Of a stretch of DNA of 64,000 nucleotides, positions 9,281 to 64,000 are shown one piece after another (position 1 is the first letter of the stretch; each line of letters starts with the position of its first letter). The stretch comes from Candidatus Omnitrophota bacterium (GTDB lineage: Bacteria > Omnitrophota > Gorgyraeia > Duberdicusellales > 4484-171): assembly GCA_043823745.1 (NCBI GenBank), contig JBDRAN010000035.1, positions 13,795 through 77,794 on the forward strand. The letters run 5' to 3'. The notes under the pieces are model-generated. The model did no database searches, was not told the DNA's origin, and saw nothing but the letters and a program-made list of their open reading frames with translations. Made by a program: the position numbers and the translations under genes.

Positions 9281-9286
9281 ACTAAC

Positions 9287-13718: not shown

Positions 13719-13724
13719 TTCTAA

Positions 13725-14513: not shown

Positions 14514-14581
14514 ATACTATTCACCCAGACTTCAGGCTTTACGCTATAAACCTAGAACCTGTAACCTTGAGCCTACACCCC

Positions 14582-15637: not shown

Positions 15638-15639
15638 AA

Positions 15640-15765: not shown

Positions 15766-15780
15766 GTAAGCATTAGCCCC

Positions 15781-16749
15781 TCACCGCTGGTACCGTATTC
15801 GCGGATCGGCATACGCAAGTAAAATATCGCTTAAAAGGTTACCGGCGATAAGCATGATTCCGCCGATAAGCATAGCGCCCATCACTAAATATAGATCCTG
15901 ACTGCGCACCGCCTCAAGCGTTACCTGCCCTAAACCCGGCCAGCCGACAATAATTTCCACCAACGCCGCGCCGCTTAATAAATCAGCAAACTGATATCCA
16001 AAAATAGTAATCATAGGGTTAAGCGCGTTACGCAGCGCGTGGCTATACAGAATGCGCGTACGACTCAATCCTCGCGCGCGCGCGCCCAAAATATAGGTAG
16101 AGCCTAGTATTTCAAGCATATGAGCTCGCAATATCTTATGCAGGCTGGCAATACTTCCGATCGAAAGCACCAGCACAGGAATAATAAGATGCCTCAGAAG
16201 ATCGCCTGCTTTCTGCCACGGCGAAAGCTCCTCAAAAAGAAGCGAGCGCATACCTCCCAGCGGGAACCATCCCGAAAAAGTAGCGGCATAGAGAAAAATA
16301 AAAGCCCAAAAAAACGCGGGCGTTGAAATGCCTACATATGAGCATAAGGAAAGGACTTTATCGATTAACTTATTTTTATGGAGAGCCGCGGTCACACCGA
16401 GAGGAATAACGATGAGCCACGTAAAAAGAAGGGATGAAAGCGCCAAAAGGACGGTGTTAGCCGCCCGCGCTGCAATGACGCGCGCGACAGGAGCTTTGTA
16501 CGCGAATGAATAACCAAGATCTCCGGAAAAAATGTTTTTGAGCCACACTCCGTACTGGACAAGGAAAGGCTTGTTGAGGCAAAATTTCTCCTCATAAAGC
16601 CGTATCGCGTCACGCGACACTTGGGGGTTAAGACGCAGGCTATCAAGAAAATCGCCGGGAGCAATATGGATAAAAAGGAATGCGAGAAATGTTATAGTAA
16701 AAAGAAGCGGAACAACGTACAGGAGCCGCTTGACAATATAATAGCGCAT
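15781..16749 (-). CDS. Opp/Dpp-type ABC transporter permease (B subunit)
   Basis: 322 aa with a typical DppB/OppB N-terminus MRYYIVKRLLYVVPLL and about six TM segments. Confidence 0.7.
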   Translation of the reverse strand: MRYYIVKRLLYVVPLLFTITFLAFLFIHIAPGDFLDSLRLNPQVSRDAIRLYEEKFCLNKPFLVQYGVWLKNIFSGDLGYSFAYKAPVARVIAARAANTVLLALSSLLFTWLIVIPLGVTAALHKNKLIDKVLSLCSYVGISTPAFFWAFIFLYAATFSGWFPLGGMRSLLFEELSPWQKAGDLLRHLIIPVLVLSIGSIASLHKILRAHMLEILGSTYILGARARGLSRTRILYSHALRNALNPMITIFGYQFADLLSGAALVEIIVGWPGLGQVTLEAVRSQDLYLVMGAMLIGGIMLIAGNLLSDILLAYADPRIRYQR

Positions 16750-16794
16750 CGTACGATAGACCCATTATTCCTGCTACAGGAGCCGACAGAAAAG

Positions 16795-17106
16795 CTAGAC
16801 GACCTTCTCAAGCGGCTGTGCCATCTCCCTGTTAAACGCGATTCCGGCATGCCAACTCTCACCGATTTTTTTACACCAACATACTTTTCCGAGTGCTGTT
16901 ATTACATCGTACGCCCGGGCCTCGAGAGAAAGGCCGGCATACGAATCAACCGCCAAAGGCTCATTCGCGCTTACGCGCGCGCCATGAGCGCTGATATCAA
17001 GGCACTCGATTCTGCGGGAGAAATTGTCCTTTGAAAAAAATAATCCTTTCAAAGAACATGGAACGCGCGGCGATCGCCGCCTGCTACCATACAACTCTTC
17101 GCCCAT
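16795..17106 (-). CDS. PilZ-domain protein (putative c-di-GMP receptor)
   Basis: RRxxxR motif (RRRSPRV) followed by DISAHGARV...DSYAGLSL, i.e. the PilZ (D/N)xSxxG pattern. The ATG at 17104-17106 is preceded by a perfect AAGGAGG Shine-Dalgarno at 17111-17117. The track's TTG start at 17175 is unlikely. Confidence 0.65.
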   Translation of the reverse strand: MGEELYGSRRRSPRVPCSLKGLFFSKDNFSRRIECLDISAHGARVSANEPLAVDSYAGLSLEARAYDVITALGKVCWCKKIGESWHAGIAFNREMAQPLEKVV

Positions 17107-17110
17107 ACTT

Positions 17111-17117
17111 CCTCCTT
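17111..17117 (-). promoter_or_regulatory. Shine-Dalgarno AAGGAGG for the PilZ gene
   Basis: Reverse complement of CCTCCTT, 4 nt upstream of the ATG at 17104-17106. Confidence 0.6.
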
Positions 17118-17177
17118 TTTTATTGTAACATGTAAATAATTTAATAAAATATTTTTCGCATTGCGCCCTATACAATT

Positions 17178-20100
17178 CTATCGAACAACGGGTCTGGCCG
17201 GCATATCTATGCGATTCCTGAAAACAATGGTATTTTGGCGGATATGCATAGCTCTTCCGTTTGTAAGGGGCATTTCCATTGGTAACAGGGCGCTGCTGGG
17301 GCTTGACGAAGCTCCTCGGTTTTTTTCCAAAGCGTTATGTAACCCTTTTGCTTCCCACGAGATTACTTTATATTCCCATTGCAATTCAATTATCTGCCTT
17401 TTGACCTGTTCATAAGAACTTTGAAGCTGCGGGACTAAGCGGGCCACTTCTTGTTCTATTGCCTTAAGCCGCGCCTCAATCACCTGAATTCGTTTCCGCA
17501 GAGCCTCTTCTGAATCACTCGATAGAGCCGCCCTGCGCATCGTATCTATAAGTATCCGTTCATCGTCTCTTGCCGCAATGTGCGGGTCCTGGTATACTTT
17601 CTCTCTTATTGCAAGCGCTTCTTCAGGCTTGATTCTTAACGGTATGACTCCGTCATCGCCGCTTCTTACCACACCCTTGACCCCTCCCGGTAAAAGTCGA
17701 TAAAACGCAATGGCTCCTTTCGCGTTGCATTCAGCGATAATTTTTCTATCCGTATTTAAAGATTCCCTGAAATTACCTTTCTCGCCAGGAGAAGACAGCC
17801 GGTACAACTCCTGATACTGAGGGATTCTATCAAGCAGCACTACTGTCAGATAAAAACCAACCTCCCGATTACCCCACACAATACCGGCGGCTTTCGCCCC
17901 AATGCGTCTCATAACTTCACTTTCCTCCGGCCCGGGTAAAATTTCTCCCTCGGCCAGCAGTCTACTCTGACCCGTCGCTACCTGTCTATACCTCCAGAGG
18001 ATAAAGGGATGCGAATGGATAATAAACTTGCCATGAGGGACTGGCTTAATTACCTTTATGTCTCTAAACTGAGCTTCTGTCTTTTTCCCTTTATAAAAAA
18101 GTATAGGGTTAAGGGTTGCGTTCCCGGCTACTGCCGCGGTAAAGACTGACTCAATGCTTTCAGTATCAAGCACATCAACGACGGAACCAAGGGCTTGACG
18201 CAATCGCTGATCTTCTCTTAAGAAATATTCAAAATCATTACAATCGCGTAACTTCCAGACTTCAGCCGAGGATGAAGAGACCACGCTTTGAGTACTAAAA
18301 AATGATACGCTCGGTTCTTGCTTCAAGGCCTGCGTATCAGGCACTGAACTGCTTGAACTCGTAGCTGATCCGCTCAAAAACATACGCATAAAGTCCCCCG
18401 CCACTCGAAGATGCCCGTCATCTCCGGCAAATAACCTTACCTGTTCATCGCTTAAAGACTGAAAAATAGCTTTGTCTCTTGTTAAAACAAGGTTCAACAA
18501 ATTTTCAAGCGTTTCGGTTAATTGTAAATCCTTTATCCTTTTTTGTGCGTGCAACAACGAGTATCGATCTCTTCTTACTTTTCCCGCAATAGACGCTAAG
18601 CAATCCCTTATCCACTCAAGGTTACCTCGGAATTTTTTCCGTATCCCGATCGTAACAAAGCAGTTACTCACATAAATACCAACCTCCTGGGCTAGCGCAT
18701 CATCAAGAGCTATTTTTGCTGATAAGAGATTGTCCAAGGGTTCATTACTGTTGAAAGTAGGGCTTGAAACAGCTTTTCTGCTGCTGATATTTTTTGCGCT
18801 GTGAACAAAAGAAACGTCTGGCTGCACTCGTCCGAATCGGTGAGACTGATGGATTATTCCGGCTACGCGTATTTTTTTCTCAGACAAGCTTGGATTCAAC
18901 AAAGTAAATGGTCCATCCGGCAAGCTGTGAAACCAGGTGCGCAATTGATGCTGGTGAGTAACCCCAAGGGCGATTGCTGCTGGTTTTTCGGCACCCGAAG
19001 CTATAATGGTATCGAATATGCCTTCAAGCCTGGAACTCGTATAGTCTTTTGTTTCTCCACCGGCCAACACCTGAAAAGCCCGCCAGGAAATTTCGCTCTG
19101 AGTTATTTTCCAAAGCCTGATCCGTTTTGCCACGGCACCGCCACTGATAGAGTGTGGCCTGCACCAAAGCCCAACTTCCTCTTTACTGAATCGCACTGTA
19201 GCTTTTATCTTAAACAATGCTGACAGGTATGATTGCGCCAGCAGGTCTACGAAACGCTGCTGCCGGAGGTCTCTCCTACTATACGTAACCAAGGCTACAG
19301 AAGAGCTGCCACTCTCACCTTCCGGCGCATTTGGTGAGCTGGCGCGGCCTTGCCCTGAGCCTGTCGAAGGGCCGCCCTTGTCAAGACTTTCCTTATTGGC
19401 TATGGCTTCCCTTATTCGCGTAAAAATATTATCCAAGTTCTTCTGCACTGTATTTCTTAGACGCCAATAGGGGCCACTGGGCGGAACAAAAAACCGGCCT
19501 GCGGTTGGCCGTTCATCTTCATAAACAAACAACTCTTTCTCACCCAAAACAAGATAAACCATATTTGCTGATTTTGGATACTGCTTTACGAAAGCATCCC
19601 TCATCTTTTCTGTCATCACAAAGATAATAACTGCTTCTTCTATTTCTGCGCTGGTAACTTTCCGCTGCTCATGCAAAATTAAAATCGGATCGCTCTGCTT
19701 ATCTACATCTGTACCGGGATCCGAAACAACCTCACACAAGGCCGCTGACCAAACCTCTATTCTGCCTCTCAAATCATCAGGAACCATTGAACACAAGATA
19801 CCCGCCACTATCGGCGAACGCTCTTTATTTTGATTACAAAGAACCAGGACCTTATGCCTCGAGGAATCCTGCGCGCCGCTATCAAGGTTTCTTTCTTCCG
19901 GCGAGGTACGGCCGGCTTTTCTTCCCACATCTCTGGTCCCACACCCTACGCCCTTCGGATTTTCCGCCGGCGAGCTAGCCCGGCCTTTGCTATCAAGGTG
20001 TTCGAGTTGGTTTGGATTTAATTCTTTAAGCTGCCGCCAAAATGTGTATTTGATAAAATGCCAACCCTGCCTGGCATTGCGATAATCATCGTCATTCCTT

Positions 20101-23100
20101 TCTGCATCTTTAAAACATGCGTCGAGTCTAAAATAAACAGCACAGGCTCTACTAAATAATCTGCAAAAAACACCTTTGTCTTTTATTCTTTTTAAAGTAC
20201 TTCCAATACTCTTTTGCAACAAAGGCTCTACAAGCGGTATATACCAGTCAGAAGCTAAGTGTTCTACGCCGCGATCAAGATCAGAAGCCAAATTCTCAAA
20301 CAAGATTATCGCTTCTTCAGCAGCTTTCTGTAAAGCTTTTTCAATATTGGCTTGGGGATTACGAATCCGAACAGCTTCTTCATATTTTTCCTGATACATT
20401 TCTCCAAAAGCAATCGCCCAATCTCTATGGCGGCCAGGATTTAACTCTACTCCTAAATCGTGATAACCCTGTGATACCCTTCTTAATATAGAAGCATTCG
20501 TTGAACTTATTCCGGGTAACTGGGCAAAATTCCAACAGACAACAGCCATTTCTGCCAAATAACCGAGGCGGCGTTCCATGCGAAATTTATCCTTGTGCTG
20601 CTTCGCATACTCAAAACCTTCTTGAGCAAACTCCGGATAACTTTGAGCAGTCTTAGCTTGGGGGTCTGCTGCGGTCATGGCCTCAACAATTACTTCTTCG
20701 GCATACTTTCTCAAACCAACATCAGGCATATAGCCCAGTTTTGAACGGATATATTTATCGTAAGCACCTTGCGATTGCTCTATAGCATAGTGATTTCTTT
20801 CATGGATTCCCAAATGAGTAGCGGCTTTGATTGCAACACCAAGAGAATATCTTCTGTAACCAAAATTTACGGTATAAGTTTTAGAGCCCATATCTTGCCG
20901 GATAAGAAACTTTGCGGAATGGCTATCTATTTCCTCATATCGATAATCAAAAGGAATACCGCCTACAGAGCGAAGAATACTGACGAATTGCTCCTTCTGC
21001 TTCTTTGTCCAGTCCCAAGAGGAAGAGGGGCTTGAGGTTTGGCTTTCGCTACTTACTTTAGAAATAATCGAACGTAGCGTTTCTGCTTCGAATTTTTCCC
21101 TATATCTATGGGCTTCCTCTTCAAGATGTTTCAATTTCTCAGGCATATCGCTCTGTTCAAAAAGGCTTGCTAACTCCCTATATAACTCCTCACTGCCGAC
21201 GAGGAATTTGATGCGATAAAACTTTTTACATTCAAGAAGACTGTTTCTATCCTTCTTGCTCATAAGCTCTTTTATCTGCGACATTGTCATCAAGGTATGT
21301 TCTGTCTCCCTGTCAAAATTGTCGCCGAGCTCTGCTAAGCCTCCCCTGACTGCTCGAGACAATCTATTTATAGTGATTGCTTGGTCACTAAAAGCGACTT
21401 TTTTCCATTCATAATCATCAGCTACAAGGACGACAAGATCTATATCGGAACCTCTAACAATTTCACCCTGTTCATTTATTCTTTCACGGTCATGGGCCAT
21501 ACCATAGGCAACACTTCCAGTCAAAGCAAAGAAACTTTTCTCTTCTATATGCCTTCTCCGATAAGGTGCTGCATTCGCAAGAATTCCATCATAACCTGTT
21601 ACCTTGCTTTCAACAATTGAAGCCAAAAACTCGTTGTAAGATTCTAATTTTGCTTTGTGCCTTGCTAAAGCCTTTTTAAATCGTTCATCGCCTTTTAGTC
21701 CTACCACAATAAAATCCATAAACTCCTGAACAATCGTAGGCTGAATTTGCGGGCCCCTGGTGGTGAATTTGAAATATCGCTCTCCCAGCATGGCTATCTC
21801 TATCTCCGGAGTAGTTTTAGCAACTGCCCAGAGATTCAAAGCCACTAACTCTTCATTTGCCTTATCATTTAAATAAAGAACACTTTTATCTCGGTAATGC
21901 CTAGGCTTGAAACCGGCAATTTCGCTAAAAAGATCCCGGCCCAGAAGCGGCCCGGTTCTTTCAAGAACACCAAGGACTTTCTTACCTAACTTCTTTATAG
22001 CTCTGGCTCTTTCTTGGCTTGATTCGCCTGGCTCCCCCGGTGAGCTGGCCTGGCCTGTGTCCCCCATAAAAGTTCTTCTCACCTGATTCTCATCATAAGG
22101 AAAAAACATTCTATAGCTATCCATCTTCTCCGGCTTAAGGTCTGCACCAAAAAGCGATTCTCCTGATGCCGCAAAGAAATCATCCATTTGAATTGGATTA
22201 GTTGCAAAATACCTTGCTACTTCTTTACCCGCCTGACTCTTTAAATCATCATAGAAATATTTATTAGTTATACCAATAGACTCTAAAAACATACCCACAT
22301 TCCCTGAATCACCCTCAAGATCCCCAAAATCAAAGACATAGATTCTCCCGGTATCCAAATCTACGCCATAATTGCCATAAGGATAAGTAAAATCAAAGTC
22401 CATCACCCCTCTTTTGAACATCGAGATTACAAACTGTTTATAGCTGTCAATGAGACTCTTAGCCTCAGATATCCTTCCCTCTTTGCTCAAATACTTTAGG
22501 CGACTAAAAACTGGTACTACCTTTTTTTGGACAATAGCTAAATCAGTTTTCTTCACGCCACCATATTTTAAAAAATAACTGAACGGTTTCCTTGAGCCGT
22601 CGGTGGCGTTGATAATTATCGTCGGTACAGCAAGGCCGCTTAATCTTTCCTCGGCCAACTTACAGCTTCGCTTTATCCAGAAACGTAAAACATTATCTAT
22701 CTTGTCGGGATATCGGGACTTTTTTACTACAAAATCAAAACCATCTTGTGAATATGCAATGAGATGTCTGCCGACACCGACATGGCGCAGAAGATAACTC
22801 TCCGGAGAAACTTCCGCGGGGGTAATGGGTTGCTTTTGCCGTAACAACCTATCTATTTCCTTAGCTAAAAACTTACCGTCAATGGCTCTGGTTACATCTA
22901 ATCCAAATCTAATAAGAATCTCTCTTCTACCACCTAAGGCCTTTTCTTGCCGTAATTCGGCAATAGCTTTTTCGGGCAAGCCTTGAACTCCCTCTTTAAA
23001 TTGCCTCAATAATTCCCACTTGCTTACACCTGTTCTCTTCTTGCCTTTAGCCGATGGAACGTATTGAATCGAAGGTTTGGGCGGCTCCTTTGGATCGTGG

Positions 23101-26100
23101 TCATCCGTCGGCGAGCTGGCGGCTTCTATCTTACTTGTAACTTTGTGACCTTGTGGCTTGTGACTTGTCAGTGCCGGCGAGCTGGCCCCGTTAGAGATTG
23201 ACGATCCATTACCTTCTGTATCTCTAACGGGGCTGGCTCGGGACTCATCAAGTCTTGTTCGAAGCTTAGCTCCGAACAAGGCGTTCTCTGTGGCAAGGGC
23301 ATAGACCAAGGCTGCTTCTGAAAGAGCTGAGCTGCTCCGGAAAGCAGTTGGCTGATCAGCACCAGTAGGTTGCTGTAAGTAGTAAAACCATGTCTTTCCT
23401 TTTCCGGGAATTTGCAGAGATTGTAATGGGTTGGGTCTTTGCTTGGATAAGTTTATAAGATACTTTCTTGCCGTATTAGGCCTTAAACCACACCTATTTG
23501 CGATTTCGTTTACTGATATAGCTTTATCTGCTGTATCTGGCAGCACTGCCATAATTTGCTGCTCGCTTCTTTGCTTGTCTATCGCTAACTGCTCCTGCCT
23601 AGTTAATTGTGGTTTTCTAACAGCCGCCGGCACTAAGCGTTCCGGTAGCTTAGCTATTAAATCCAGTACTTTTAGTTCATCTGCCCTAAACTGCCCATCC
23701 ACATACAAAACTGGAACTTTTTCTGTTTGGTTCAATAACTTTGCTGTGATTCTAAATGCAGAAGCATCAAAATCTACAATTAATCCGGCTTTAGTTCTAG
23801 AGTCGGCTTGCTTCAGCCTATTGCGCACACCTAAATGAGCTTCCGCAAGCCCAACAGAAGCGGCTATAATAAAAAGGGGTTGAGCAAAACCAACTCTCCT
23901 AAACAAAGCTCTAAAATTATTTTTTATAGCCTTAATATGAGGTGCCTCTTCAAATCGCCCTCCTGCCTGGGTATTTGCTGCTTTAAATTCTTGCAAACCC
24001 CAGATAAGTTGTTCCAAAAATCTTCTCTTCACAATTCGCCAGGCTTCCTCTTTTAACATAAATTTGCCCTGCCTACGACAAGCTAATTTTAATTGCACCC
24101 ACTGTTTTAAATTCTTATCTATAATTTCTCTATTTTCTCCTAAACCATCAGCTAATTGTCTAATTTGGGTGAGATTTTTTGACTCTTCTTTAGATAAAAA
24201 CTGGCCAATTCTCTGCCAGCATTCAGCTTTTCTGGAGAAATCATCAATTTCTTTATCTGTTTTCTGAACAAGCCTGGCATCGACAATAAAAATGGCCTTG
24301 CCTTCTAAGCTTTGTAAATCCTGCCCAATCGTCTTCCCACCATGAACCAGGGACCGTGGCCTACTTGCACCCGCTGAGCTGGCCCGGGGGCCTGGTTTGT
24401 TTTTCCCGCCTTTTTTTCCAGAAGATGAGGTAATCCCTGTGGGGATGTATTTACATCTTTTTATAAATTTTATAGCTTGAGATATACGTAACAACTCTGA
24501 TCCCGCTCGTCTATCTCTTTCTGCATCTGTCAAATGACTATTTAGAATTTCAATAACTGCCCTTCTTATATGATAAAAATTATTATCCATGAACCTGTCT
24601 AAGCTCACTTTTTCTGAGGCAGAAACATCTCGTCCGATTTCCAAACGGCTAAAGTTTCTGAATTCTTTTTTTAAATTAGATAACATCTTCTGTCTTGCTA
24701 AAATATACACAACCCGCATGTGAATCTGGATAGGAAGAAAACCAGTATCAACATCTGCGTCTTCTCTAATGAGTTTTAAAGTTTCTACGCCTACCTTATA
24801 GTGCCTAACCGATTTTTTATGGCTGTCTTCAAGGTCATAGAGACAGGCTATGCGAATATGCAAATTGGCTATATCATTGAGGATGAGCCTCTGTTTAGGA
24901 AAATCTTCCATGGCCATTGGGCTTCTGGCCTTAATTCTTCTTAACTCCCCACCTTTTTTTGCAATTTCTTCCCGAAGGCGCCTCCTTTGCTCTCTTGCCA
25001 AGGCAAGCGTAAACATATCGCTTACAGCCATCATCCGCCTGCATCTTCTATCTATTTTTTCATAAACCCCGAAAGGATCTACCCCCATAGCCCGGCCATG
25101 AGCTTCTTCAACAGCTTCGTAGGTAACCTGCTCGCCTCTTTTAAGAATCTGAGAATACTTTTCTACCTCCATCTGGTCATGATGCAGGACCGTAGCTATA
25201 TATCTAGGATCTTCTACATCCTCCAGGAACCTTGCCGGAATATAAACTATCTTGTTTTCCTTTCCAATGTGGGTTACTTGATAGTAAGTTTGGTCGTTTG
25301 TGTCTTTTCCGTAAAGTAGAAAATGGCTCGGCACATCTACCTCGACTACTGTGGTTTCTTTCTCAAACCTACTGGCCCTTGAAATTATTTCTCTATCCCT
25401 CTTACTCTTCGGCTTAATTTTCTTCAAAGCTTCAGTTGCCTGCCGTATCTTTTCGGCATTTGACGAATTTAAAGCCAGCGGCAAATTTTCCTGCCAAAGC
25501 TTCTTTTCATAGTAACTTCCTTCCTTTATTATCTTTTTGGGAAAAGCCCGGATAATTAAATCCACCTGATGGTGACGCGGAAACACATCTCCTTGCCCAA
25601 AAGAACTGTTGGGAGAATAAAAATCTTGCCAGCGCTCTACGGCGCTTGAACCTTTCTTGCCCACGGAAAGGTGGCCGGGAATAAATTCTTTTATAAAAAA
25701 TGTAAAAAGGCCTTTTTTAGTTAAATAAGCCTTGGGGGAAATTATTTTAGCCTGTTCAAACATCTTTTTAACAAATAACTCAGATACGCATGAATTGTGC
25801 ACAGTCTTAGCCGGAGAGCTGGAAGCAATGCTTTTTATCTTTCTTTTATCAGGCGAGCTGGCGGTAGGATAGCTCATAGTTCGTAACTCATAGCTCCTCG
25901 ATGATAGGTCAGTTAGAGATGACGATCTGGTCCTGAGCTGGCCCTCTCGCCTGTAATGCTGTTCATCGTGAGCAACAGGTGAAGAGCTTTGTCTATCTTG
26001 CCTGTTAACCCTGACTCTAATTATAAAAACTTTTCCTTCTTTAGGGCCGGGTTGGACTGCAATCCTGCTTTTCCCTACAGAGAGGGAAGGACTGTCATCG

Positions 26101-29100
26101 TTTCCATCTAGAATATTAGAAATAACTCTCTCGAACTTAAAAAGAATGATCGGCAGTTTAACAATTCTTTCTCTCTCTCGGTATCGCAATATGATTGTTC
26201 CGTTATCTTGAGGTGTAGCTTCAAACCCATACTCTCTGAATACCCCGTTAAGCTTATCAATAATTTCATAAATAGAACCCGAAACATGAATGCGAATTGT
26301 GCGCTTATTAGGTAAAGTCATTCCGCAAGAATCTGGTAAAATATTAAACATTATCTGACTTGACCTTATGCCATTTTCCGGCGAGCTAGCCCGGCCGCCG
26401 TTGTCGAAGGGACCCTCTTCTGATTGGTGAGATGATGAGCTCAGCGTTGTCTGTAGCAGTTTAAGGTACGCATCGACCTTCCTCAAATAGCCCTCGTCCC
26501 CGAGTAACAATCCCCGCTGAGTCGTTAAAACTCCGGGATGCGTGGAAAGAAAATCTGTAAAATCGGTGTTTGCTCTGATCCAAATACTGACTCTCTCAGC
26601 AATATCCCCAAGGGAGAAATCATCCGATAATGAGTCGAAATAACACCATTTAATGGAAACGGCCATGCTGTCAAATCCATGAATAACGCCCAGTGTTCGT
26701 TGGAGTCGAGTCATGCTAAGGCTCGGCAGGAGGTTCATGGCTTCCTGGGCATAGTTGGTAGCCAAAAATAGGTATACACAGCAGCGGATCTCACGGCTCT
26801 TCTGCTTGCTCCATGAAATAAGTATTCTTTCAAGATCCCGAACATGAAATGTAGCCCCCCAGAGTTTCATCGTCGCATCCATATCTTTAAACCATATCCA
26901 CACATCTCTTAAGGCGCAATAGGCCGAAATGTCATCTATGCCCATAACCGCCGATTTCGCGGTCTTGAGTAATCGTTGAAGAATAGCCAAATTATCCGAA
27001 AAATTCATGAAAGCACTTTGCTCGGGCCTCTTAATCAAAGAATTATCAGCTTGACCCGAATCAACCGATGCTCGCAGGCGAGCTACCTCTTCGCTAAAAT
27101 AATCCAAGCCTTGCGATGACGAGCTGGCGGCTTCTCTCTTACTTGTGACCTTGTGACCTTGTGAGGCCGGCGAGCTGACTCTATGCTTCGTAAAATAATA
27201 CATATCTGTTGCTTTCGGAAATTGCTGATTCCGAGGCAATCCGAATTTTACCATCAGTCCGGCTTGATTTTCCTTTGATACCAACCCTGTTATAATTAAA
27301 GTTCCCGTTTGAATAAGAAGGTCATATAAATTGTCCGCTGCCGGCTCGATATCCATATCGCCACAAAAGACAAGCGCAGAATATATGGTGTCAAACCTAA
27401 GGGCTTTCCAGGACGCGGGAATGTTTTCGATACTTCCTTTTATAAAACGTCCGTCGTTATTATTAAAATTTTCTACGCCATTTCCCATTACCGGCTCTAT
27501 TGCGTGCACTTTTGCCGGATCGAAGCCAAGACGGTTAATCAAAAACAAACCGATTGAACACCGCCCGCCGCATCCTACTTCAAGAAACATCTGTTCTTTC
27601 AAAGTCTTTAACTTCTCCCCTACAACACCCAGCCCCTCATTCCCGACAAGTGCATCCACAAACTTCTTTAAATCCAGACGTTCACCATCGTCGAGCAATG
27701 CGTCCCTTTTTATCGCCGAAAATAATGTAGCAGCCATCACCGAAGGGCTAGGCGAGCTGACTGACACAATCTGCCGTTGCTGCATATCCCTAGCTAACTC
27801 TTGAATAAAAACATCGATCTTTTCTTTGGTAACGTGCTGCATAGCCATGATGTGCACAAAATCTCCATACGGGGCCAGCTGCCATCTATCTATCAACTCT
27901 TGAGAGGGCCTGGCAAATATCACAGTATTGGAAAACTCATTCAGCTCCGAAGGACATCCTATTTTCTGCAGCTTCCGGTAAAGATATTGCGCATTCTCCA
28001 TGCATAAACCCGCTTCTTTCCTGAAGCCTTCATATCCTTTTGTCGTAACAGCGTGCCATAAATAAAATAACACCTGCCCGCTCTGGGCGGTTAATAACTC
28101 TTCTACCTGTCGCATAAAATTTTGGCTAGCGCAGCTTTCGCGAACCATGAATATACCCGAAGGCATCGGCAGCCCCATAAACTTGTGCCCGGATATGGCA
28201 ACACTATGGACGCTTTTGGCTAAGTCTATCTTTGGCGCACCTTCTAAAAACGGCAGCATCATACCGGAAAGAGCGGCGTCACAATGAATATGAAAGTCGG
28301 CAACATGGCATTGGCTTAGAATACCTATTACTCTTTCCGGACTATCTATAGCGCCCCTCATAGTCGTTCCGATATTAAGGTTTAAAATGACCGGCCGACC
28401 GCGATTGGCTTTTATCGCCTTCTCCAATTTGCTATAATCGATCTCACCGTTGGGTAAAGATGGGATCTTTATCGCTATCCTTTCCTCGTTGTATATTGAA
28501 TAATCGGAATCTTCTCGGTATTTAATTATCTGCATATTCAATAGCCTAGCTATCTTGTCTATCGAATAATGCGAATCTTCGCTATAATAAAGTATTCCGG
28601 TGGGCCTGCCGGGGAAGCGTTGTATTCCGGCTAAGATTCCTATCAGATTTCCCCATGTCCCGCCAGCAGTTACTCCACTAAAAACATCCTCATCTTCGAC
28701 ACCGTACAACTTTGTGAAAAAATCAAGCGCCTCCTGTCCAAATGCTTGCGCGTCTTCTTTTCGTAAAATATATTTAAACAGATTCTGCAAGTCGCCATAC
28801 GACTCTTTGCTTGCTGTTATATTCGCGGGAAATCCCAAAAATCTTTCCATCAGCTTTTTCAAGCGTCCTTCAAGTCTATCCAAAGTATCAAGGACTTCCC
28901 GGGAAGGCTGATAGGCGATTTCTTCACTGACCTCAATATCGCCGGGAGTCAATACCCCCTGCTGTAAGGTACCACCCAAATGGTCTTTCAATAAATCGTT
29001 CACAAATTCCGCTATCTCTATGTTTGTCAAATAAGGTATGGCCTCGAAGCATGATTCCCGACCGTAAGATAAAAGCCCCCACTTTCTACGCACCTCAAAG

Positions 29101-50100: not shown

Positions 50101-53100
50101 AGATGGAGTCTTTCGGGCGCGGCCTCAGGAATCCCGCGATGCGTATCAGGTACCGATGTCACAACGGCTGACTTGACTGAGGTTAGTGAACTGCTGCTAT
50201 TCTTTGTAGCTCTTGTTGGGCTGCGCCCCAGCGCGTCCCGTAGGGGACTGCGCCGCAATTCAGCCATTACGTCGTCAAATATACCCCTGAAGGCTGATAT
50301 AACAGGAACAATACACCGCTCTATCTCTGCTTGCGAAGGAGCTCTGTGATGGGAGAGACGACGCGCCCATCCCGAGAATTTACCTGAGAGCGTTTTTTCT
50401 ATTTCCGTAACAAAAAGGGTAGGTAAATATTCATCTAAAGCCTGCCTCAATACAATACCAACAACATCAGAGGACAGACGACGCTCAAGCTCTTGTCTAC
50501 GGGTAGCTTTAGCTTGCTGCAATTGCCTCTTATCAGCCAATTGCGCAGGCGCACTATTCGCAAGCCAAGCCTCTACTTTCCTGTCAAGGTAGTAGCCTCT
50601 AAAAAACGTGTCGCGGTCCGGCCTGGCGTAATTCTTAAGCGCCTCCATCATGAAAGCAATAATCGACTTTTCGATAAAAAATACATTGTCCGGTTTCCTG
50701 ATGTGGTGACAATTAAAGGTAGCTCCCCACCGCGCGATGAACGGTAGAATAGTTTTTATGACTTCTGACAATCTATTTTGAGTTTTCTCCTCAAACAGCC
50801 TCATCGCTCGACTATGCTGTCTATTTTTTGTAAATACAGCAAGCGCCTCTTGTTGTACGTCACTATAAAAAACCTGAATTGACCTCTCCAAAATGTTCAG
50901 GGACTCAGGGGAAAAATTTTTCCTAAGCACACCAAGTGATTCATTTACTCCAGAGCCAGCTACTCCACTTAATCGAGCCATTCGCTTGATGAGGGAACCG
51001 ATAATCTCTAATTCTTCAACAATCTCCTTGTGAGGCTTCCTCTGCGAAGCGGAACTAGAAGAATTGCAGTTAGACTTTGAATTGTGATTTTTCAAATCTA
51101 CCGATGAGCTACTGCGCGGATACCCTTTACCCATGCGCGGATGAGTTATCTGCAAGAGATTAGTATGCGCGACCCATTCGGCTCCTTGTGGTCTTTTCCC
51201 GATCGTTGTACGGCCATCCTCTGTGCTCACCCATACGGGAAATCGCACATCGGCGGCATCAGCCGACAGTTCGGCCTGGCGTGCGGAGGTGGCTTGATCT
51301 AATGCTTTGCGTTTAAAATCATCCCACCGGCCGGGGCTCCATATTTCAAGACGGTCGCCAACGCCGACAAACACTGCGATATCGGCCAGGCCAGCGAATT
51401 CCCGTAAAGCACGCGGTATATGTAATCGAGAATTCCTGTCTATCGCAGCCATGGGTATTCTGTCTTGTGGTTTTTTATCTCCGAAACAAAGATAGCCTTC
51501 ATCTCCTTTATATAGATAAAGCTTGGAAGAAGCCAAATCCTTCCGCCAGGCCGCGGGAATTAACAGCCGGCCTCGGTCGAGTGAGCGCGAATGCGTACCG
51601 ACAAAGATTCTTGAGGAAACCGATGAGCTGCCATAACGGGGTACAATACTGCTTGAAGCAATAAATTCTTCTGCCAGACCCTTAATATAGGAAGATGCTT
51701 CTTGGTCCTCGAACTCTTGAGGTGTTTCCCCAATCAGCGCATCTTGGTATCTTCGTGGATTGATTTGTAAAAACGGGATACCTTCACGAGCATGCGAAGT
51801 TACGTAATAGCGGTGAGCGGCTTGTTTACCATAAGGCACTACATAGAGACTCTCGGCTGCGGTTTTAAGCGCTGCCAATACGGTTCTTTCTTTTTCCGAA
51901 GAGGCACGAGTAGACATCGCCTCATGCAATATCCTTTGCGCGCTGTCAAGATAGAGGGCGCCGTCATCGGCAAGATCCCCAAAACGTATTGTACTCTTAC
52001 GCCTCAATAAAGCAGTCACCTCTTTAGAAGTAACAATTTCCGCCTGCTCGCCCAAATGTTTATTCATCATGAACGTAAGCGCATGCACAAGGCTATTACG
52101 CTGTTCAAATACCTTAAGCCGTTGTAGAAAATCTTGAACGTTGCCAAGCCCTGTCTGTTGAGCGAAAAAATCACCGATTAAGCCAAAAAAACCGAGTGAA
52201 GATGCGCGAGGTTGATACTGCGGGCTTGAACTGTCTGCTGCTTGCGGCGAGCTGGCCTGGTAAAGGCGTTTTGCGTCCGCGGGGCTTTGCACCTGTTGTG
52301 CCCGAAGGTTATTCAAAGGACTAGAACTCTTAAGAGAGTCCGCTATAAGTGTTTCTATAAAACCTCCCTCATTCTCTTCCGCTCCAATCATTCGCGCACG
52401 ACCGAATTGTTCATTCCTAAACGCAGATGTTGTGTCGTTAAAACCATAGTGAAGAAAACGTCTCATGCCGGCTTCTTTTGCAGCAGGAATGTACCGGTCA
52501 ACCTGATTATCAATAAACACCGGGTATTTTGGCTCGCCATACTGCTTTCTATATTTATCAAGAGCAATCTCAAATATTTTTTTCCCGTCCGATTTCACGG
52601 TTCCATGTTCACCGGTAATCACAATTAAGTCCGGATCGATAAGGCCCGGGTAACACCGATCAAATAGTTTCATCATCCACTTTCTGCCAGCCGCCTCAAA
52701 GTTCGATATAACTCCGAATCTTATTCCTCTCTCCGATTGAACTCTCAATAAATCATCGAGCCTTTCTTGAATCCATGGATTTGCGCTCATGGGGCCGAAA
52801 TAGGCCTCCTCAAACTCATCTTGAGTAACCGGCCGAACTGCACCGTAACCTAACAAATACCTACTGATAAGGTCAACCCAACGCTTAAACGTTTCTGGGT
52901 TGCGATGTAAATCATGCCGGGCAATTATCTCAGAACCTTCATCAACTTCTTCCGGCGGAATGATCAGTCGGTGTAAACCCTCTCTGAAACTCGGCTTTTT
53001 CTCCGTTTGCCACCCTTCACTATCGGTTAAACCTGAATATGTTCCTAATCTTCTGAGTGTTTCATCGAAGAAATCTTCAATCTGAGTGCCTAAAACCCGC

Positions 53101-56100
53101 CCATAGTCAAAAAATACAATGTTGGTTTGTCTACTCTGTTGCGGAGAACTGGCAGCGGCAGGATTATAAGGTATTTTAACCGCGACAAAAGGATTTTGGC
53201 CGGTGCTTTCGGAAGGCGAGCTGCCCCTTGTTCGTCGTGCGTATTGAGTATCGAGTATTGAGTTTGAATCCGACGAACTGGCGGCAGGATCGGAAAAAGG
53301 CCGCTGTCCCATTTTTTCTGTTCTGCCATTTAGCCCTAAGCCCCTGGCCGGCGACGAGGCGGAAATAATAATATTTGGCAACATTACAGTGACTGTAGTC
53401 CCCACATTTTCCGTGCTATCAATTGTTACTGTACCGGATAACCGACAAACTATAAGTCTAACCCAATTAAGCCCTACCCCGCCTCTATGACCAGGATAAA
53501 TAAAGCTTCTTTTAGCATTTTCGGCTCGATACCCGTTCATTTTCCGAACCAGTTCTAGCTCTGCTTGAGGAATACCAATACCTTGATCTCTCACTAGAAG
53601 AGTTAAATATTTACTTTTTGAACCATAATCAATATCAATTGCAATGACCGTCTCAGGATTATCTTTTTTACAGTATTTATAGGCATTTTGAAATAAGTGA
53701 TACAAAATACTTGTCACCTGTTTAAATAAAGCTTCATCTAAAATCTTATCTGCCAGGCCATCAGGAATGGAAATCATAACTCTAAACTGCTCTAAAACCC
53801 TTGCTGTTTTGATTACCTCATCCACGGTAACACTCATAGATAAAGAAACGTTTTCACCGCTTAAACCGGCTAAAATCATATTCCTTCTAGTCGGATCTTG
53901 AGGAATAAAATGCTCCACAATTACATGCGGAACAATCTGCTGCAGAGAGCGAACATCTCCTTTATAAAGCCCCACAAGTTCTCCTATACTGTAACATTTC
54001 TCACCCGGTGAGCTGGCTTGGGTTTCAATTGCTGTTTTACCACGAATATTTCTTAGGTTGTTCGAGGAATTTTTTTGGATAAACTGTCTTAAGATTGATT
54101 CCCTGGGAATTACGACATCAACGGGGGCGAGACGAACCGGTTTCAAAAGAGAAATCAACCTCCGCATAACCGTCAACATCTCCTCCTGTCTCACTTCTTT
54201 CAAGTCACTCTGCAATATACCCCAAACTTCTCTTTTGAGTATAGGCAATTCATAAGGCGCGTAGGCTTGAACGGTCACATCGGCATGTACCCACTGCGGA
54301 TAGAGGTCATCAAGCATCTGTCCGTGTTGTTTTAAAAAAATGGCAATTGTATCTTTTGGTTTTTGCTGTTCAGTGAGCCACTTGTCCAGAATCTCCCGGA
54401 GCAGGCGCGCATGAAGAGACGTAAAGGGATAGTTTCCTTTCAATTTTAAACTGGGCGCGGTATTGACAAAAACCTTAAACACAGGTACGCTTTTTGCGGA
54501 AAGCTCTTTCAGTAATCCAGGAGAGAACGCCTCGATACCTTCAACAATCAAGGTTTCATCGGCGGCAAGCCTTAAACTGCGCGGGTTGACTGAACCGTAA
54601 TAATACTGCTCGGCGCAATTTAAGTTAACCCTGGCACCGCCTAAGAGGCCGATAACGTCAGTGGGGGCATGATAATCGAGGTGCAAGACTTTGGCTTTTT
54701 CACCGTTCCTTAGGAGCTCGCGTTTCAGATTGTGGGAAAAAGCTGCTTTTCCTACGGCCAAAGGACCGGTTACCAGAACCACCCCCCGTTCGTGAAAGAA
54801 ATTCTTGGCAATCTGGACGGTAATTGAACGCAGGCCTTCCTCAGCGCGCTCCTCCACGGCCTTGATAAGCTTCTTTAACCGCCCCTCGTCAACAAAAGAA
54901 TTTAACTCTTCAAGCGTATCTGGAAAATGCAAGCTGAATTTAGCCACGTAGGGATGACGGCCGTTCTTATACCGTACTTTCAATCGGTTATCAGCGGCCA
55001 CACAGGCGTCGCTGACTTTCATCACAGCCAGGATCATTGCCGCGGCGCGCAGGTCCACATGGTAAGCTTTTGCCACTTTTATTACCTGCTCAAAAGCATT
55101 GACCATCCGCTCCTGGAGCATCTTATCCACTGCGATCAGGTGCCAATGCTCATCCTGTATATTCTGGGCCCATTCAAAATAAGATACTGTTACCCCACCG
55201 GAATTGGCTAAGATATCCGGCACAATGAGTATGCCTCGCTCAAGAAGAACCTCTTCAGCTTCGGGTGTAGTGGGGCCGTTTGCACCCTCAACTATCAAAC
55301 GGGCTTTAATCCTTTCGGCGTTGCCGGCATGAATTTGATTTTGGACTGCCGCCGGAATTAGGATATCAACCTTGGCTTCGAGAACTGCTCCGCCCGCTAC
55401 CCGGACAACATCAGGATAATCAAAATCCTTAAGCTTCCTACCTTGAGAAAGGTATGTCTCTAAAATCGCAAGGAGTCTATTGTTTATTCCTTTAGGAATA
55501 TGAATTCCTCCAGAATCATCGCTGATATAAAAAATCTTACGGCAGCCGCTTTTCTGTAAAATTTTAATCAGCTCAAAGCCAACATTGCCTGTGCCCTGAA
55601 TAGAGTAACTACATTTTCTAAAATCTTGAGGAAGTTTAAGCTTTTGAGCGTAACACCGCACAGATTCGCGGATAATAAAATAAAGCCCCTGGCCGGTTGC
55701 TTTGCCTCTTCCCTGCGAACCGCCGGCACTAAGAGGTTTACCGGTAATTACCGCCGGTTGCGGACCTTGAGCTTTAATTTTTTCATATTCAGATCTCATC
55801 CAAGCCATATATTGAGGGTCAACGCCGACATCAGGTGCCGGTATATCGCTGAATGGACCGATTGCCTCAGGATCTTTTTTGAGCAGCTGGCGCACATAAC
55901 CGCGGCAAAGTGTTTCCATTTCAGTCAGGGAAAGCGCCTGAGGATTAACGACAATGCCTCCCTTTGCCCCGCCAAAAGGAACGCCGACCACCGCTGTTTT
56001 CCAAGTCATATCCGTAGCCAAGGCCCGTATCATACCGCTGGTAACTGCCGGATGAAACCGAATTCCACCCTTACCTGCGCCCCGGGCCTTGTTATGGCAA

Positions 56101-59100
56101 ATACGGTAGCCTTTAAAATACATGGTCATTCCCTCTTGCTTAAAACAACCGGTATTGCTACGGGTCCTTGAGCCTTTATCCGTTTTAACCGGAATATCTA
56201 CCTCAACTACTTTGGCCGCATGAAACAATTTATTAAGAATCTTTCTGTCAAGCTTTATTCTTTGAGCAATGGCAAACAGATGTCGGGAGACATTTCTAAA
56301 ATAAGCATCGTCTAAATCGTCTTTGTCCCGCCGGCTCAACCTAAGGCCTGCTTTATGGGCTAAAGCAACAACCGCGGCTTTTTCCTCTGCCGGCGAACTG
56401 GCTGCCTTCCTGGAATGGAAAAAAACGGCGATTCCAGGCATAGTGCCTGCCCCATGAATATCCACGCCATCCAGAACCTGCATATTTTCCTTCATCAATC
56501 TGCCTTGAACGGGATTAATGAATCCCATTCTTTTTTCCCCATTATCTATAGTAGCTACGGCAATGCCCAAGTGTAAATGCGGCTGCACGTCGCTGGAATT
56601 ATGGAAGGCTATATGCCCCACGATAGTTTTACCGGCCTTTACCTCATCGCCCACTCGTAAATTTCCCGGAGCAATATGCCCATAAAATATATCCGCCTTC
56701 TGCTGATAATCAACTACCACTTGCTCATTGCCAACATAAACAACACTGCCGTCGCAAACCGCTCTCACGGGCGTACCTACAGGAATCTTTTTTGCGGTAT
56801 AACGCCGGCTGCCCTTGCTATCAACCATGTAATATACCCAATCCAATCCGGTATGTGGCTGAACCCGGGAGGCAAAACCATGAAGATAATCCCAGGTCTG
56901 CGTGTGTCCGAAGAGGCTTCCCTGAGGAAAAAACCATCCTATGCAGTCATCAGGCACATCCACCCTGTCAAATGGAGAATGAATAATTATATCCCCGGGA
57001 GAACTGATCACCGAGGAAGAACCTCCACCTGATTCCCCTATCTTTATCGCTCTTTTATACAAATGACGACTACCCCGGCCTTTCAATCCCAACACACGGG
57101 TAGGAGTACTCGTTCCCGACCGGTTCCACGCTTGGGTAGTCTGCAACCCCAATTCATAATCCGGGCTGATCCAAACCCTGTTACCTGAGGCAGCGTCGAT
57201 CTGCAAGCTCCTGCAAGAGATATTTCCTCCTGTACAATAATCACAGCGTACTCCTTCATTCTGAAGAGAGGAACTTACGTTTCGAGGCATATTCTTATAT
57301 GCCTTATAATACTGAATACCGACGCGGACATCGTCCTGGCACAGTTCTACGTCAAATTTTAATTTATCCCTGAAAAATTCACCGTACCCTTGAGTATCGG
57401 AACATAACCAATACGTAACAAGCTGCTCTACGCCTATATTTTCTAAATATCTGACAAGAACGGAATACCAGGCTGTCCCGGTTTTGACTTCTTTATTGCC
57501 GCGGACGCTTTTATCTAACGCTAACCTGAAATAAGCGCTCTTTTTGTAAACACAGATAGAAAGATACGCGAGCTCATTCTGTTTGTAACGCAAACTAAAC
57601 GTAAGATAGTCATCTATAAATTCATCTAAACCAAACCACATTGCCTGCCAGTCTTCCAGTTCTAACCGGTGCCCCGGAGAAACCACAACGGTGAGTTTAT
57701 TTTCCGATTCGGGAAGACGTTTTGTTATTTCATCAACGGGGAATAACAACGCAGGGTTTTGTTTTATCTTCTCAAGAGACTCCGCGGAAAATCTATATAC
57801 ATGCTTGCTGGACACTGACGAGCTGGCTGGAGGTGAACGCCCCGGCCTGCTTTTCCAAGACAATAAATCAATCATATCGTTGGTGTCCTGAACAAAAATT
57901 ACCTTTACCGGCGAACTAGTACACTCTGCGTCTAAACTTGAAACCTGATTAATTCCGTTTATAAAATCATCCGTGCTCATCCAGTAATAGAGTTTTATCC
58001 TTACATATTTATTTTCAGTATTTTCCTGTCCCTTCCGCGTTCCGTTCAGATACACCGCCACTTCATAATCCCTAAACCCTCTTCTCAAAGCATCCTCTTG
58101 CTCTAATGTCCGGCCTTCCCCGCTCTTAACCAAAGCAATAACATCATTGATGGGGTATTTATCTCCGGAGGGAAAATGGAATACCTTATCGGCAATAATG
58201 TGATATGAAACACTTGTGTGGTCTCTCTTCTGCCAGTCGAGGATCGAGTGAAACGCGCGGCGCAGGCAAAATCCCGCATCATAATAACTACCGCAGAAAA
58301 CCACATTGCAATCCCTCTCTTTAGAACGCACCGGCCAACGGATAAATGCGCTCCTCTCGATTTCCCCGGCCGCGGAAGGAATAGCGACAGGCTTTAGTTT
58401 CTCTGCCTGTTCGAAATCTAAGGGATACATTAAAATGAGCTTCTGTCCGAAGATAACGCCTCTTTTCTCTAAAGCATTAAGAAGCCAATCATAATCCCGG
58501 TGTTGATGAGCCTCAACGCCCACCGTGAATCGTGAGTCAAGAACCACTCTACTCTCACCGGAGGCGGCAAGCTTACGTGTCACTGACGAACTGACTCCAG
58601 ACGCATCATGTGCGCCCTGCTGAGCCATGAACTTATCGAAATATGCTGCTAGCGTTTCGTGCGTCCGGGCTGCTGGAATATCGGTATCCCGAAAACCTGC
58701 GGAGCTTGCGACAGCGTACAACGGCTCTCGGGCATATTCAGGCTCGCGCCAGAAATAATCTGAAGTTACCGAGGGTTCGGCTTGGCGCCAGGCAATGAGG
58801 AGCGCCCCTCCCTGGAATTGCGAGAATGGATAGCCGACAGGAATTTTTTTACGTGCAACTACGGTAAATCCTTTGTTCTTGAGCTCGCGTTTTATTTCTT
58901 TATCTTTTCCGTTTGCAATGTCTTTTGGTTTGACAGAAACAAGCAGTAAGCCTTCATGCGCGAGAACGTTCACAGCTTGCATAAGCACTTCTGTGTCAAC
59001 CGCGCCATGAAGAATGATGATATCGCATGATGCCGGAAGATGTTTATTTTTCCCTGATACCCACCTAAGCATAATGCTCCTTGTTTCTTCACCGACCTCA

Positions 59101-64000: not shown

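Follow-up and report, generated by a model that had tools for sequence, protein, structure and literature searches.

Gene content of the locus

The stretch of DNA considered here comprises 64,000 nucleotides of contig JBDRAN010000035.1 (assembly GCA_043823745.1, Candidatus Omnitrophota bacterium) and is called the window throughout. Its main feature is a giant open reading frame (ORF) on the minus strand, which enters the window at the right edge and encodes the last 15,606 amino acid residues (aa) of a protein composed of many modules. There are ~55 modules in this visible part (median 229 aa, range 74-795 aa), a count obtained by clustering the sites of a recurrent motif into 56 linker positions. 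This motif, A-S-S-P (ASSP), sits at module boundaries, and the locus is an example clean enough to show how such giant genes are built.

The affiliation of the gene with Omnitrophota, proposed in the initial annotation of the stretch, is supported by exact matches of the neighbouring gene product OppB and by identical contigs. The OppB protein encoded downstream of the giant ORF is identical to NCBI proteins under the name Candidatus Omnitrophota bacterium and also occurs on a 107,409-bp contig that carries MFH1876569.1, and its next-best relatives (66-69% identity) come nearly all from Omnitrophota metagenome-assembled genomes (MAGs) or from contigs under other labels. Moreover, window positions 14763-18149 are identical to another contig of the MAG GCA_018827245.1, which also contains the 100% identical contigs described below. 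Two fragments of the giant ORF have been deposited at NCBI as 'response regulator, partial' and 'hypothetical protein, partial' (Candidatus Omnitrophota/Omnitrophica bacterium). The 17 ORFs of the window all share one strand, an arrangement also reported for complete Omnitrophota genomes.

Extent and authenticity of the open reading frame

In frame 2 of the minus strand, no stop codon occurs from position 63998 down to 17181, that is, over 15,606 sense codons, before the TAG at 17180-17178, and the ORF is unbroken at the right edge of the window. This frame count agrees with the stop-free ORF of more than 15,600 codons described in the initial annotation. Each of the five other frames contains 826-1,464 stops and the second-longest open stretch in the window measures only 817 codons; thus, a chance origin is excluded, as had been argued before. 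The 16 flanking genes were used to train a codon model, which favours the open frame in 103/103 sliding windows of 300 codons, with a mean score of 0.06 versus -0.33 and -0.45 for the shifted frames. The amino acid composition is that of an ordinary globular protein without low-complexity bias, and no significant tandem repeats were found in the giant ORF, nor any Rfam families or tRNAs in the window.

The gene is longer than the window, as had also been anticipated. Contig JAHJZK010000305.1 (L044) of MAG GCA_018827245.1 overlaps positions 61586-64000 with 100% identity and prolongs the frame upstream by 5,142 nt, equivalent to 1,714 codons, with no stop and no start identified. The known part of the gene thus amounts to at least 51,960 nt (17,320 codons or more), with the frame unclosed where L044 ends; a 40-mer taken from this end had no match among metagenome contigs.

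A frame of this length could in principle be an artefact, namely a chimeric or collapsed assembly, a series of separate genes fused by sequencing errors, or the product of reassigned stop codons, given that the window is metagenome-derived and that internal paralogous modules could mislead an assembler. However, all three stop codons are absent over 46.8 kb, while the 16 flanking genes have standard stops and normal lengths, and the coding statistics are uniform. Three public contigs of MAG GCA_018827245.1 (L042, L044, and the one encoding fragment P0007), which may share a sample with the window, match it at 100% identity over 3.4, 2.4, and 6.8 kb with the frame intact. The internal paralogues are only 34-69% identical at the protein level and, thus, too divergent to collapse in assembly. 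Furthermore, ORFs of more than 2,800 codons, cut by the locus edge, end just upstream of OppB in four other genomes (loci L002, L005, L010, and L013; ~10001), and complete relatives of 5,692 aa and 6,089 aa exist, with starts and stops of their own. An artefact is, therefore, extremely improbable and can be considered essentially excluded, and we hold it to be nearly certain that this is a real multi-module giant gene of Omnitrophota. The uniform coding potential and the three identical contigs likewise uphold the earlier view that the ORF is not a pile-up of frameshifted genes. The accompanying argument that proteins of such size are very rare loses part of its weight, since giant ORFs are common in this phylum.

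Modules of the giant protein

Eleven Pfam families were found in the visible part, of which at least nine distinct ones pass curated cut-offs, each in one or two copies (Table 1). They include Peptidase M23, both domains of glutamate dehydrogenase (GDH), HATPase_c, MraZ, GT4/GT1, transglutaminase-core, Trypsin_2, and a pyridoxal phosphate (PLP)-dependent decarboxylase, in addition to a few weak matches. The wall-active enzymes, proteases, and metabolic enzymes that the initial annotation had listed were all recovered (M23, GT4/GT1, transglutaminase-core, trypsin-like, GDH, and PLP decarboxylase). Its statement that recognizable domains recur along the whole length fares less uniformly, since the 11 Pfam families and the PDB sequence matches agree with it, but most of the length of the giant protein has no Pfam match.

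Table 1. Positions in the window of the giant ORF, its modules and linkers, and the genes directly downstream.
Feature	Position	Strand	Residues	Remarks
Giant ORF	17178..64000	minus		15,606 sense codons and TAG stop (17178-17180); 5' end beyond the window
Peptidase M23	56559..56786	minus	2405-2480	PF01551, E 2.6e-9; homologous module in P0049
Glutamate dehydrogenase module	54018..56390	minus	core 2571-3000	ASSP linkers at residues 2533 and 3328
Histidine-kinase-type ATPase	53376..53717	minus	3428-3541	Between ASSP linkers 3328 and 3547; Pfam and PDB match
MraZ-type DNA-binding domain	51288..51446	minus	4185-4237	PF02381, E 2.6e-13
GT4/GT1 glycosyltransferase	48732..49685	minus	4772-5089	Pfam and PDB match
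Long linker cassette	43605..43805	minus	6732-6798	ASSP at both ends
Transglutaminase-core (papain-like)	43206..43541	minus	6820-6931	PF01841, E 2.6e-7
Trypsin-like (Trypsin_2) serine peptidase	36873..37343	minus	8886-9042	Pfam match
Transmembrane-like hairpin	35379..35510	minus	9497-9540	Kyte-Doolittle
12-mer GCCAGCTCGCCG	31545..31556	minus		Encodes A-S-S-P; one of 26 in-frame copies with at most 1 mismatch
Tandem PLP-dependent decarboxylase	27789..29699	minus	11434-11672 (partial copy), 11689-12070 (full copy)	
Module A	24393..25631	minus	12790-13202	Alpha/beta domain and TPR-like tail
Module B, copy 2	23313..24395	minus	13202-13562	69% identical to copy 1, residues 9074-9426 (35721-36779)
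Example linker	23061..23261	minus	13580-13646	ASSP at 23175-23186 and 23109-23120; extended form ASSPALTSHKPQGHKVTS
Module C	22059..23033	minus	13656-13980	Protein-kinase-like fold, pLDDT >90; disordered linkers on both sides
Downstream genes	12954..17175	minus		PilZ 16795-17175; OppB 15781-16749; OppC 14582-15637; Opp-type ATPases 13725-14513 and 12954-13718

The GDH module (PF00208, 1.5e-66; PF02812, 2.2e-40) aligns to residues 10-411 of the 419-residue GDH 1gtm with an E-value of 9e-97 and keeps in its core both the catalytic-Lys signature VPFGGAKGGIVVNP and the Rossmann motif GTGNVG, so that it appears intact as judged from its sequence. The decarboxylase matches the serine decarboxylase 8jg7, which has 418 residues, over residues 9-386 of the latter (E 8e-70). 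Its SGHK (S-x-H-K) lysine motif is retained at ~residue 11936, and the whole tandem module is 62% identical in another giant ORF, L171. In the trypsin-like module, TAGHA and GFSGAP can be read as putative catalytic His and Ser motifs. In addition, the upstream extension of the frame holds a response-regulator receiver domain.

Module A is carried by ~25 long proteins with invariant His/Asp/Glu residues (RH.Q, THIG, HHDQxE), and a second copy straddles the 5' edge of the window, where residues 1-115 (63654-63998) form its tail and the remainder lies on L044. The conserved N-terminal domain of module A had no PDB match, only the generic TPR-like tail being recognized, and, thus, the module cannot be called a protease; this domain may be a new metal-dependent enzyme. 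Module C has no Pfam match, its best PDB matches are AceK and PknB, and it is carried by ~40 long proteins. Tiled BLAST revealed four paralogous module pairs within the giant protein, for which reason the whole-chain self-BLAST, which indicated no internal repeats, is misleading.

Overall, the modules are mostly cytoplasmic-type enzymes and regulators, together with three of protease type (M23, transglutaminase-core, and trypsin-like). A Kyte-Doolittle scan gave six transmembrane (TM) candidates in 15,606 aa, two of them strong, and the only convincing pair corresponds to residues 9497-9540, while in P0005, from the upstream extension, long hydrophobic runs resemble membrane segments by eye. 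The 15,606 visible residues have no Pfam match to SecA DEAD-like (PF07517 or other), C39, dockerin, lectin, or TSP3 domains, although a SecA-like part could lie in the unseen 5' stretch or be too divergent for Pfam, and no Pfam match to carrier-protein, condensation, or ketosynthase (KS) domains.

This content bears on the main rival among the interpretations of the gene, a model proposed for Velamenicoccus archaeovorus (PMC10066038) and by West-Roberts et al. (10.1101/2023.11.21.568195). In this model, the protein would remain uncleaved as a giant membrane-anchored or surface scaffold that attaches to prey or host and degrades walls, and the linker motif would be a flexible spacer or a Ser-Pro O-glycosylation/phosphorylation site. 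The wall-active-type modules (M23, glycosyltransferase, and transglutaminase-core), the transmembrane hairpin, and the hydrophobic stretches of P0005 agree with such a role. So do the enrichment of peptides of a 39,678-aa ORF in attached cells, for which an extracellular coat was proposed (PMC10066038), and the presence of TM helices or a signal peptide in 94% of long proteins (10.64898/2026.06.07.730766). However, cytoplasmic-type modules dominate here, including GDH with intact active-site motifs, PLP decarboxylase, the histidine kinase ATPase, MraZ, the kinase-like module, and the response regulator; sigma-70 and Cro/C1 helix-turn-helix (HTH) domains occur in relatives; and TM candidates are scarce for a chain of this length.

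Linkers and the ASSP motif

The linkers between modules are short, hydrophobic-poor, predicted to be disordered, and rich in Ser. ASSP occurs 32 times versus 0.36 expected, SSP 56 times versus 4.5, and runs of at least SSS 44 times versus 7.6. For SSP and ASSP, this corresponds to a 12- to 90-fold enrichment. The motif usually takes the form [R/G/Q]-A-S-S-P-[A/G] and is at times lengthened to ASSPASQGHKVTS. Hydrophobic-poor segments make up 10% of the chain and harbour 35 of the 56 SSP sites, and the Pfam domains lie between successive motifs, as HATPase does between those at residues 3328 and 3547. When residues 13606-14000 are modelled with AlphaFold, the core reaches a predicted local distance difference test (pLDDT) score >90, while both motif-bearing ends, among them the example linker at residues 13606-13646, score <50, and the model of module A likewise combines a confident core with motif-bearing ends of pLDDT <50. 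The modules between motifs behave as independent evolutionary and folding units, and the designation 'polyprotein-like' used in the initial annotation is apt, since a conserved linker motif punctuates the chain.

The long linker cassette of Table 1 has a homologue elsewhere in the chain, at residues 9803-9897 (34308-34592). Both are 60-90 aa long and start with ASSP, the first ending in ASSP and the second in ASSA, with the pattern ASSPASQGH..HKVTSEEV.S.QY..THD.KRASSP. These cassettes resemble spacer peptides flanked by two sites.

Shine-Dalgarno sequences followed by a start codon are not enriched after the linkers (three observed versus 2.4 expected), which argues against an operon-like internal initiation of translation. 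As for the scaffold model, Ser/Ala/Pro-rich linkers are typical targets of bacterial O-glycosylation and, in this respect, count in its favour; nevertheless, a strict, lineage-specific pentapeptide at every boundary would be unusual for plain spacers.

Relatives share modules and carry their own motifs

A HMMER search with residues 12790-13985 across 1.84 billion representative proteins retrieved 79 proteins in three hit sets, one per module. Each match lies at a different place in a long protein (up to 7,135 aa), and most of these proteins contain only one of the modules. The homologues found by word-index searches are few and consist of long fragments, each sharing one ~300-aa module whose ends fall at most ~21 residues from SSP sites of the protein described here. 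With the protease region as query, such a search gave no match at E <= 1e-5, although the identical fragment P0007 exists, so that searches of this kind are insensitive for the giant protein. A profile search of metagenomes with module C yielded only four loci, among them L170.

Many of these relatives are punctuated by enriched motifs of their own, namely SSSP[LVI], SLDNGG, R[SA]E[VIML]R, [AG]ARMA, RAELR, EQDMA, and RLGG, at a density of only 1-5 per 1,000 aa. In 14 proteins with module C and several with module A, the measurable module ends lie at most 23 aa from the motif of the respective protein (SSP, R[SA]ExR, ARM[AS], RAELR, or DNGG). Thus, the same domain is flanked by different punctuation in different lineages, and the order of modules differs as well. 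The codons of RSExR in L046, of SLDNGG in L001, and of SSSP in L043 and L045 vary at synonymous sites and include switches between the two serine codon families; therefore, the general constraint acts on the peptide.

Codon identity of the motif

In the giant gene of the window, the motif is nearly always encoded by GCC AGC TCG CCG (GCC in 29/32, AGC in 27/32, TCG in 21/32, and CCG in 25/32 cases), compared with a background use of these codons of 31, 24, 13, and 33%, respectively (p 2e-7 to 1e-12). With up to one mismatch, the corresponding 12-mer has 27 matches in the window versus 0.25 expected, 26 in the giant ORF and one in the 17-kb flank. The 26 copies, which extend over positions 19968 to 61178, all fall in one frame of the coding strand. 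The sole flank copy, with one mismatch, is found at 3283-3294 inside a 292-aa ORF (3083-3961, minus strand) that lies between MlaE and ClpC and has no Pfam match.

Such regularity raises the possibility that the linker acts first of all at the nucleic-acid level, with the peptide as a side effect. One candidate role is that of an in-frame junction of 12-13 nt (GCCAGCTCGCCGG) at which recombination inserts, duplicates, or swaps modules, so that the gene would grow by cassettes. The other is a strand-specific signal in the transcription or translation of a message of more than 50 kb, for instance a site of the ops type where an anti-termination factor is loaded anew, or a point at which ribosomes are programmed to pause between domains. 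Apart from the single strand and frame of the 26 copies, their near absence from the 17-kb flank, and the nearly fixed synonymous positions, the distribution of the core CAGCTCGCCG agrees with this possibility, since in ~0.5 Mb of Omnitrophota-type loci, with both strands considered, it is confined to giant ORFs, which belong to four genomes; in these loci, SSP of normal-length ORFs is encoded by AGC TCG CCG in 0/41 cases. In L005, Pro-to-Ser variants of the motif keep the surrounding nucleotides. Likewise, in residues 2639-4778 of L170 (Ga0209515_10000091), RAEVR is encoded with GCG GAG GTG in 10/10 copies clustered in one part of the gene, which look like copies of one DNA source. These RAEVR codons spell a Shine-Dalgarno-like GGAGGUG in the mRNA, and other parts of this gene have RSEVR linkers with variable codons.

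However, the equivalent motifs of L046, L001, L043, and L045 are free at synonymous sites, as described above, and an element acting purely as DNA should turn up in each of the three frames. No sequence conservation was detected around the motif beyond ~13 nt, nor any local RNA structure, the minimum free energy being equal to that of controls (p = 0.84), and 12 nt are short for homologous recombination. Moreover, neither a recombinase nor a specialized NusG paralogue was seen in the 17-kb flank. For these reasons, we regard a primarily nucleic-acid role of the linker as quite improbable. Searches for the 14-mer GCCAGCTCGCCGGC in viral contigs gave single matches per contig, as chance predicts, and were uninformative.

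Genomic neighbourhood and its bearing on a possible surface function

The giant gene is followed by PilZ and OppBCDF, with no gene for a substrate-binding protein between them. Altogether, the 17 kb downstream encode PilZ, OppBCDF, a class II aminoacyl-tRNA synthetase (LysRS-type), a Lol-type ABC transporter, an aminotransferase, McsA/McsB/ClpC, and MlaDEF. The McsA/McsB/ClpC cluster lies ~9 kb downstream of the giant gene (3958-8258, minus strand) and consists of a McsA-like protein with UVR motif (7764-8258), the arginine kinase McsB (6495-7553), and ClpC (3958-6399). Such a set is known above all from Firmicutes, where it serves protein quality control by arginine phosphorylation.

The position of the giant gene is syntenic, as deduced from the four OppB loci in which a long ORF ends just upstream of OppB; the ORFs of L002, L005, L010, and L013 have no similarity to the C-terminus of the protein described here at E < 1e-5. 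One of these loci, L013 (JAIWAR010000005.1), is labelled as a Methanosarcinales archaeon MAG. It has an Omnitrophota-like OppB (66% identity) with an open ORF of over 3,149 codons in front of it, and the contig is probably of Omnitrophota origin and was placed in an archaeal bin. The cultured Omnitrophota episymbiont V. archaeovorus has been found attached to the methanogen Methanosaeta. In L012 (CP070684.1, the complete chromosome of Omnitrophota bin66), the syntenic position (4229-9652) is occupied by an ORF of only 1,808 codons with an internally repeated block (AYDFYLNS, six copies) and a masked run of N; thus, the size of the gene at this locus varies greatly among genomes. In L047 (4844-9938), a 5,692-aa giant with ARMA-type motifs comes right after a complete Opp operon, binding-protein gene included. 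Giant ORFs are, in this way, repeatedly found beside an oligopeptide ABC importer of the Opp type.

No type II secretion genes, pilus genes, or glycoside hydrolases were found within the 17 kb downstream, the upstream side lying outside the window, and the presence of Opp, PilZ, and housekeeping genes in their place speaks against the scaffold model. Together with the cytoplasmic-type modules, the scarcity of TM candidates, and the strict motif, this makes the scaffold model disfavoured here, and we consider it unlikely for this gene. A predatory or wall-degrading role, as in the putative predatory or episymbiotic bacteria to whose giant genes the initial annotation likened this one, gains no specific support here, since most identifiable modules are cytoplasmic-type enzymes and regulators.

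Proposed interpretation as a polyprotein

The best explanation overall, to which we assign a probability of roughly 0.55, is a real Omnitrophota gene of the multi-enzyme class, modular in construction, whose product would be made as a polyprotein and cut at the linker motifs. The modules would be translated as one chain, and an endopeptidase devoted to this task, perhaps supplied by a protease module of the chain itself, would cut at the linker motifs and release a fixed-ratio set of ordinary-sized proteins. Over the course of evolution, modules would be gained, lost, and exchanged as cassettes at the linkers. This is the most economical reading of the module content, the punctuation, and the relatives. 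GDH acts as a hexamer and PLP decarboxylases as dimers, and a release by cleavage is favoured because oligomeric enzymes and DNA-binding regulators (MraZ here; sigma-70 and HTH domains in relatives) would need freedom to act.

As to the cutting itself, double-glycine sites are cut by C39 and papain-like peptidases, and the GG-ending motifs of some relatives (SLDNGG and RLGG) resemble such sites. C39 domains are a recurrent architecture in long Omnitrophota proteins (10.64898/2026.06.07.730766), and West-Roberts et al. suspected autoproteolysis, with 'no information about cleavage points' (10.1101/2023.11.21.568195). Trypsin_2, transglutaminase-core, and M23 modules are embedded in the chain described here, the trypsin-like one with His- and Ser-type motifs kept, and a role of any of them at ASSP is hypothetical. 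The more specific assignment of the linker motifs as processing sites is possible, with somewhat less than an even chance of being correct.

Several points weigh against the polyprotein reading. To our knowledge, no protease is documented to cut at A-S-S-P, and C39 peptidases were found by Pfam neither in the visible part nor in the fragments of GG-motif relatives that were scanned. The giant ORFs of L168, L169, and L010 have no strong punctuation motif. The visible part comprises 15,606 residues and includes the true C-terminus, while the 5' end, with a possible signal peptide, membrane anchor, or SecA-like part, lies outside. Furthermore, nearly invariant ASSP codons would be needless for a signal carried only by the peptide, and something also acts at the DNA or RNA level; AGC TCG CCG is found as well in the otherwise unalignable syntenic giant ORFs of L002 and L005. 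Copy-and-paste spread of linkers, recombination of cassettes at the linker, and a signal read in transcription or translation are the nucleotide-level candidates, none of which is preferred here.

If the motifs are processing sites, the view of these genes shifts from giant adhesins to polyprotein expression units. The lack of cleavage points has been said to block structure prediction and functional interpretation (West-Roberts et al. 2023, 10.1101/2023.11.21.568195), and the motifs are explicit candidate cut points that can be checked in existing proteomes and catalogues. They also provide a principled splitting of giant proteins for annotation and a handle on how giant genes grow. A broader proposal, which is doubtful, is that the multi-enzyme giants of Omnitrophota may be cellular polyproteins in general, with dozens of everyday cytoplasmic enzymes and regulators as in-frame cassettes and a lineage-specific punctuation that co-evolves with a processing factor and, conserved here down to synonymous sites, doubles as the junction for cassette shuffling between giant genes. 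If true, this would be a bacterial way to organize and express part of the proteome that is nearer to viral polyproteins and exon shuffling than to operons.

Comparison with known systems

Giant ORFs are a known hallmark of Omnitrophota. ORFs longer than 20 kb were reported in 77/116 Velamenicoccia species (PMC10066038), and a published catalogue lists 5,761 proteins that reach 10 kAA or more (10.64898/2026.06.07.730766). West-Roberts et al. distinguish 'large' (at least 10,000 aa) from 'giant' (at least 30,000 aa) proteins (10.1101/2023.11.21.568195), so that the gene described here, with at least 17,320 codons, is 'large' by this definition, the known part not reaching 30,000 aa. Thus, the ORF itself is one more of a known type. 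The boundary motif, its lineage specificity, and its codon identity do not appear in the texts of Nielsen & Lui 2026, West-Roberts 2023, and Seymour 2023 as searched, one of them for giant-ORF terms only, and no paper in the literature searched pairs 'Omnitrophota' with 'polyprotein'; with respect to the searched text, these three features may be new.

The gene fits class 1, the 'multi-enzyme metabolic cluster', of Nielsen & Lui 2026 (10.64898/2026.06.07.730766). Members of this class belong to the same phylum, exceed 10,000 aa, and are tiled by many Pfam families of which none is dominant, with the signature families HATPase_c and GT1 that are present here as well; low sequence conservation, a largely unannotated length, and window genes on one strand are further shared traits. 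According to West-Roberts et al. (10.1101/2023.11.21.568195), all full-length giant genes have numerous TM helices and most have a divergent SecA DEAD-like helicase domain, and Omnitrophota giant genes have been reported next to type II secretion/pilus genes, glycoside hydrolases, and carbohydrate import. Unlike these published giants, the visible part of the present protein has no SecA DEAD-like, C39, dockerin, or lectin domain by Pfam and few TM candidates by hydropathy, and it is flanked downstream by Opp, PilZ, and housekeeping genes.

The Archaeovorin/dockerin type, represented by the 39,678-aa ORF of Velamenicoccus archaeovorus, shares with it the phylum, the scale of the gene, and a suspected cleavage. 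However, the dockerin I (PF00404) and TSP3 repeats and the C-terminal SecA-like/C39 part of that type have no Pfam match here, the C-terminus included, and that type has many TM helices, compared with few TM candidates in the hydropathy scan of the visible part.

Outside the phylum, non-ribosomal peptide synthetase and polyketide synthase (NRPS/PKS) megasynthases and the eukaryotic multi-enzyme fusions AROM, CAD, and fatty acid synthase (FAS) are also encoded by very long modular ORFs with inter-module linkers at which shuffling takes place. Nevertheless, the modules of these systems contribute to a single pathway, work in cis on a substrate that stays tethered, and occur repeatedly, whereas the modules described here are functionally unrelated and mostly unique. 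Viral polyproteins (picornavirus, flavivirus, and coronavirus pp1ab) are similar in that one ORF joins unrelated units, proteases among them, with short conserved motifs between the units that differ by lineage and with modular exchange. In comparison with them, the present gene is cellular and chromosomal and at least 10 times longer, and the cleavage of its product is put forward from its motifs and modules; the likeness concerns how it may work and not membership.

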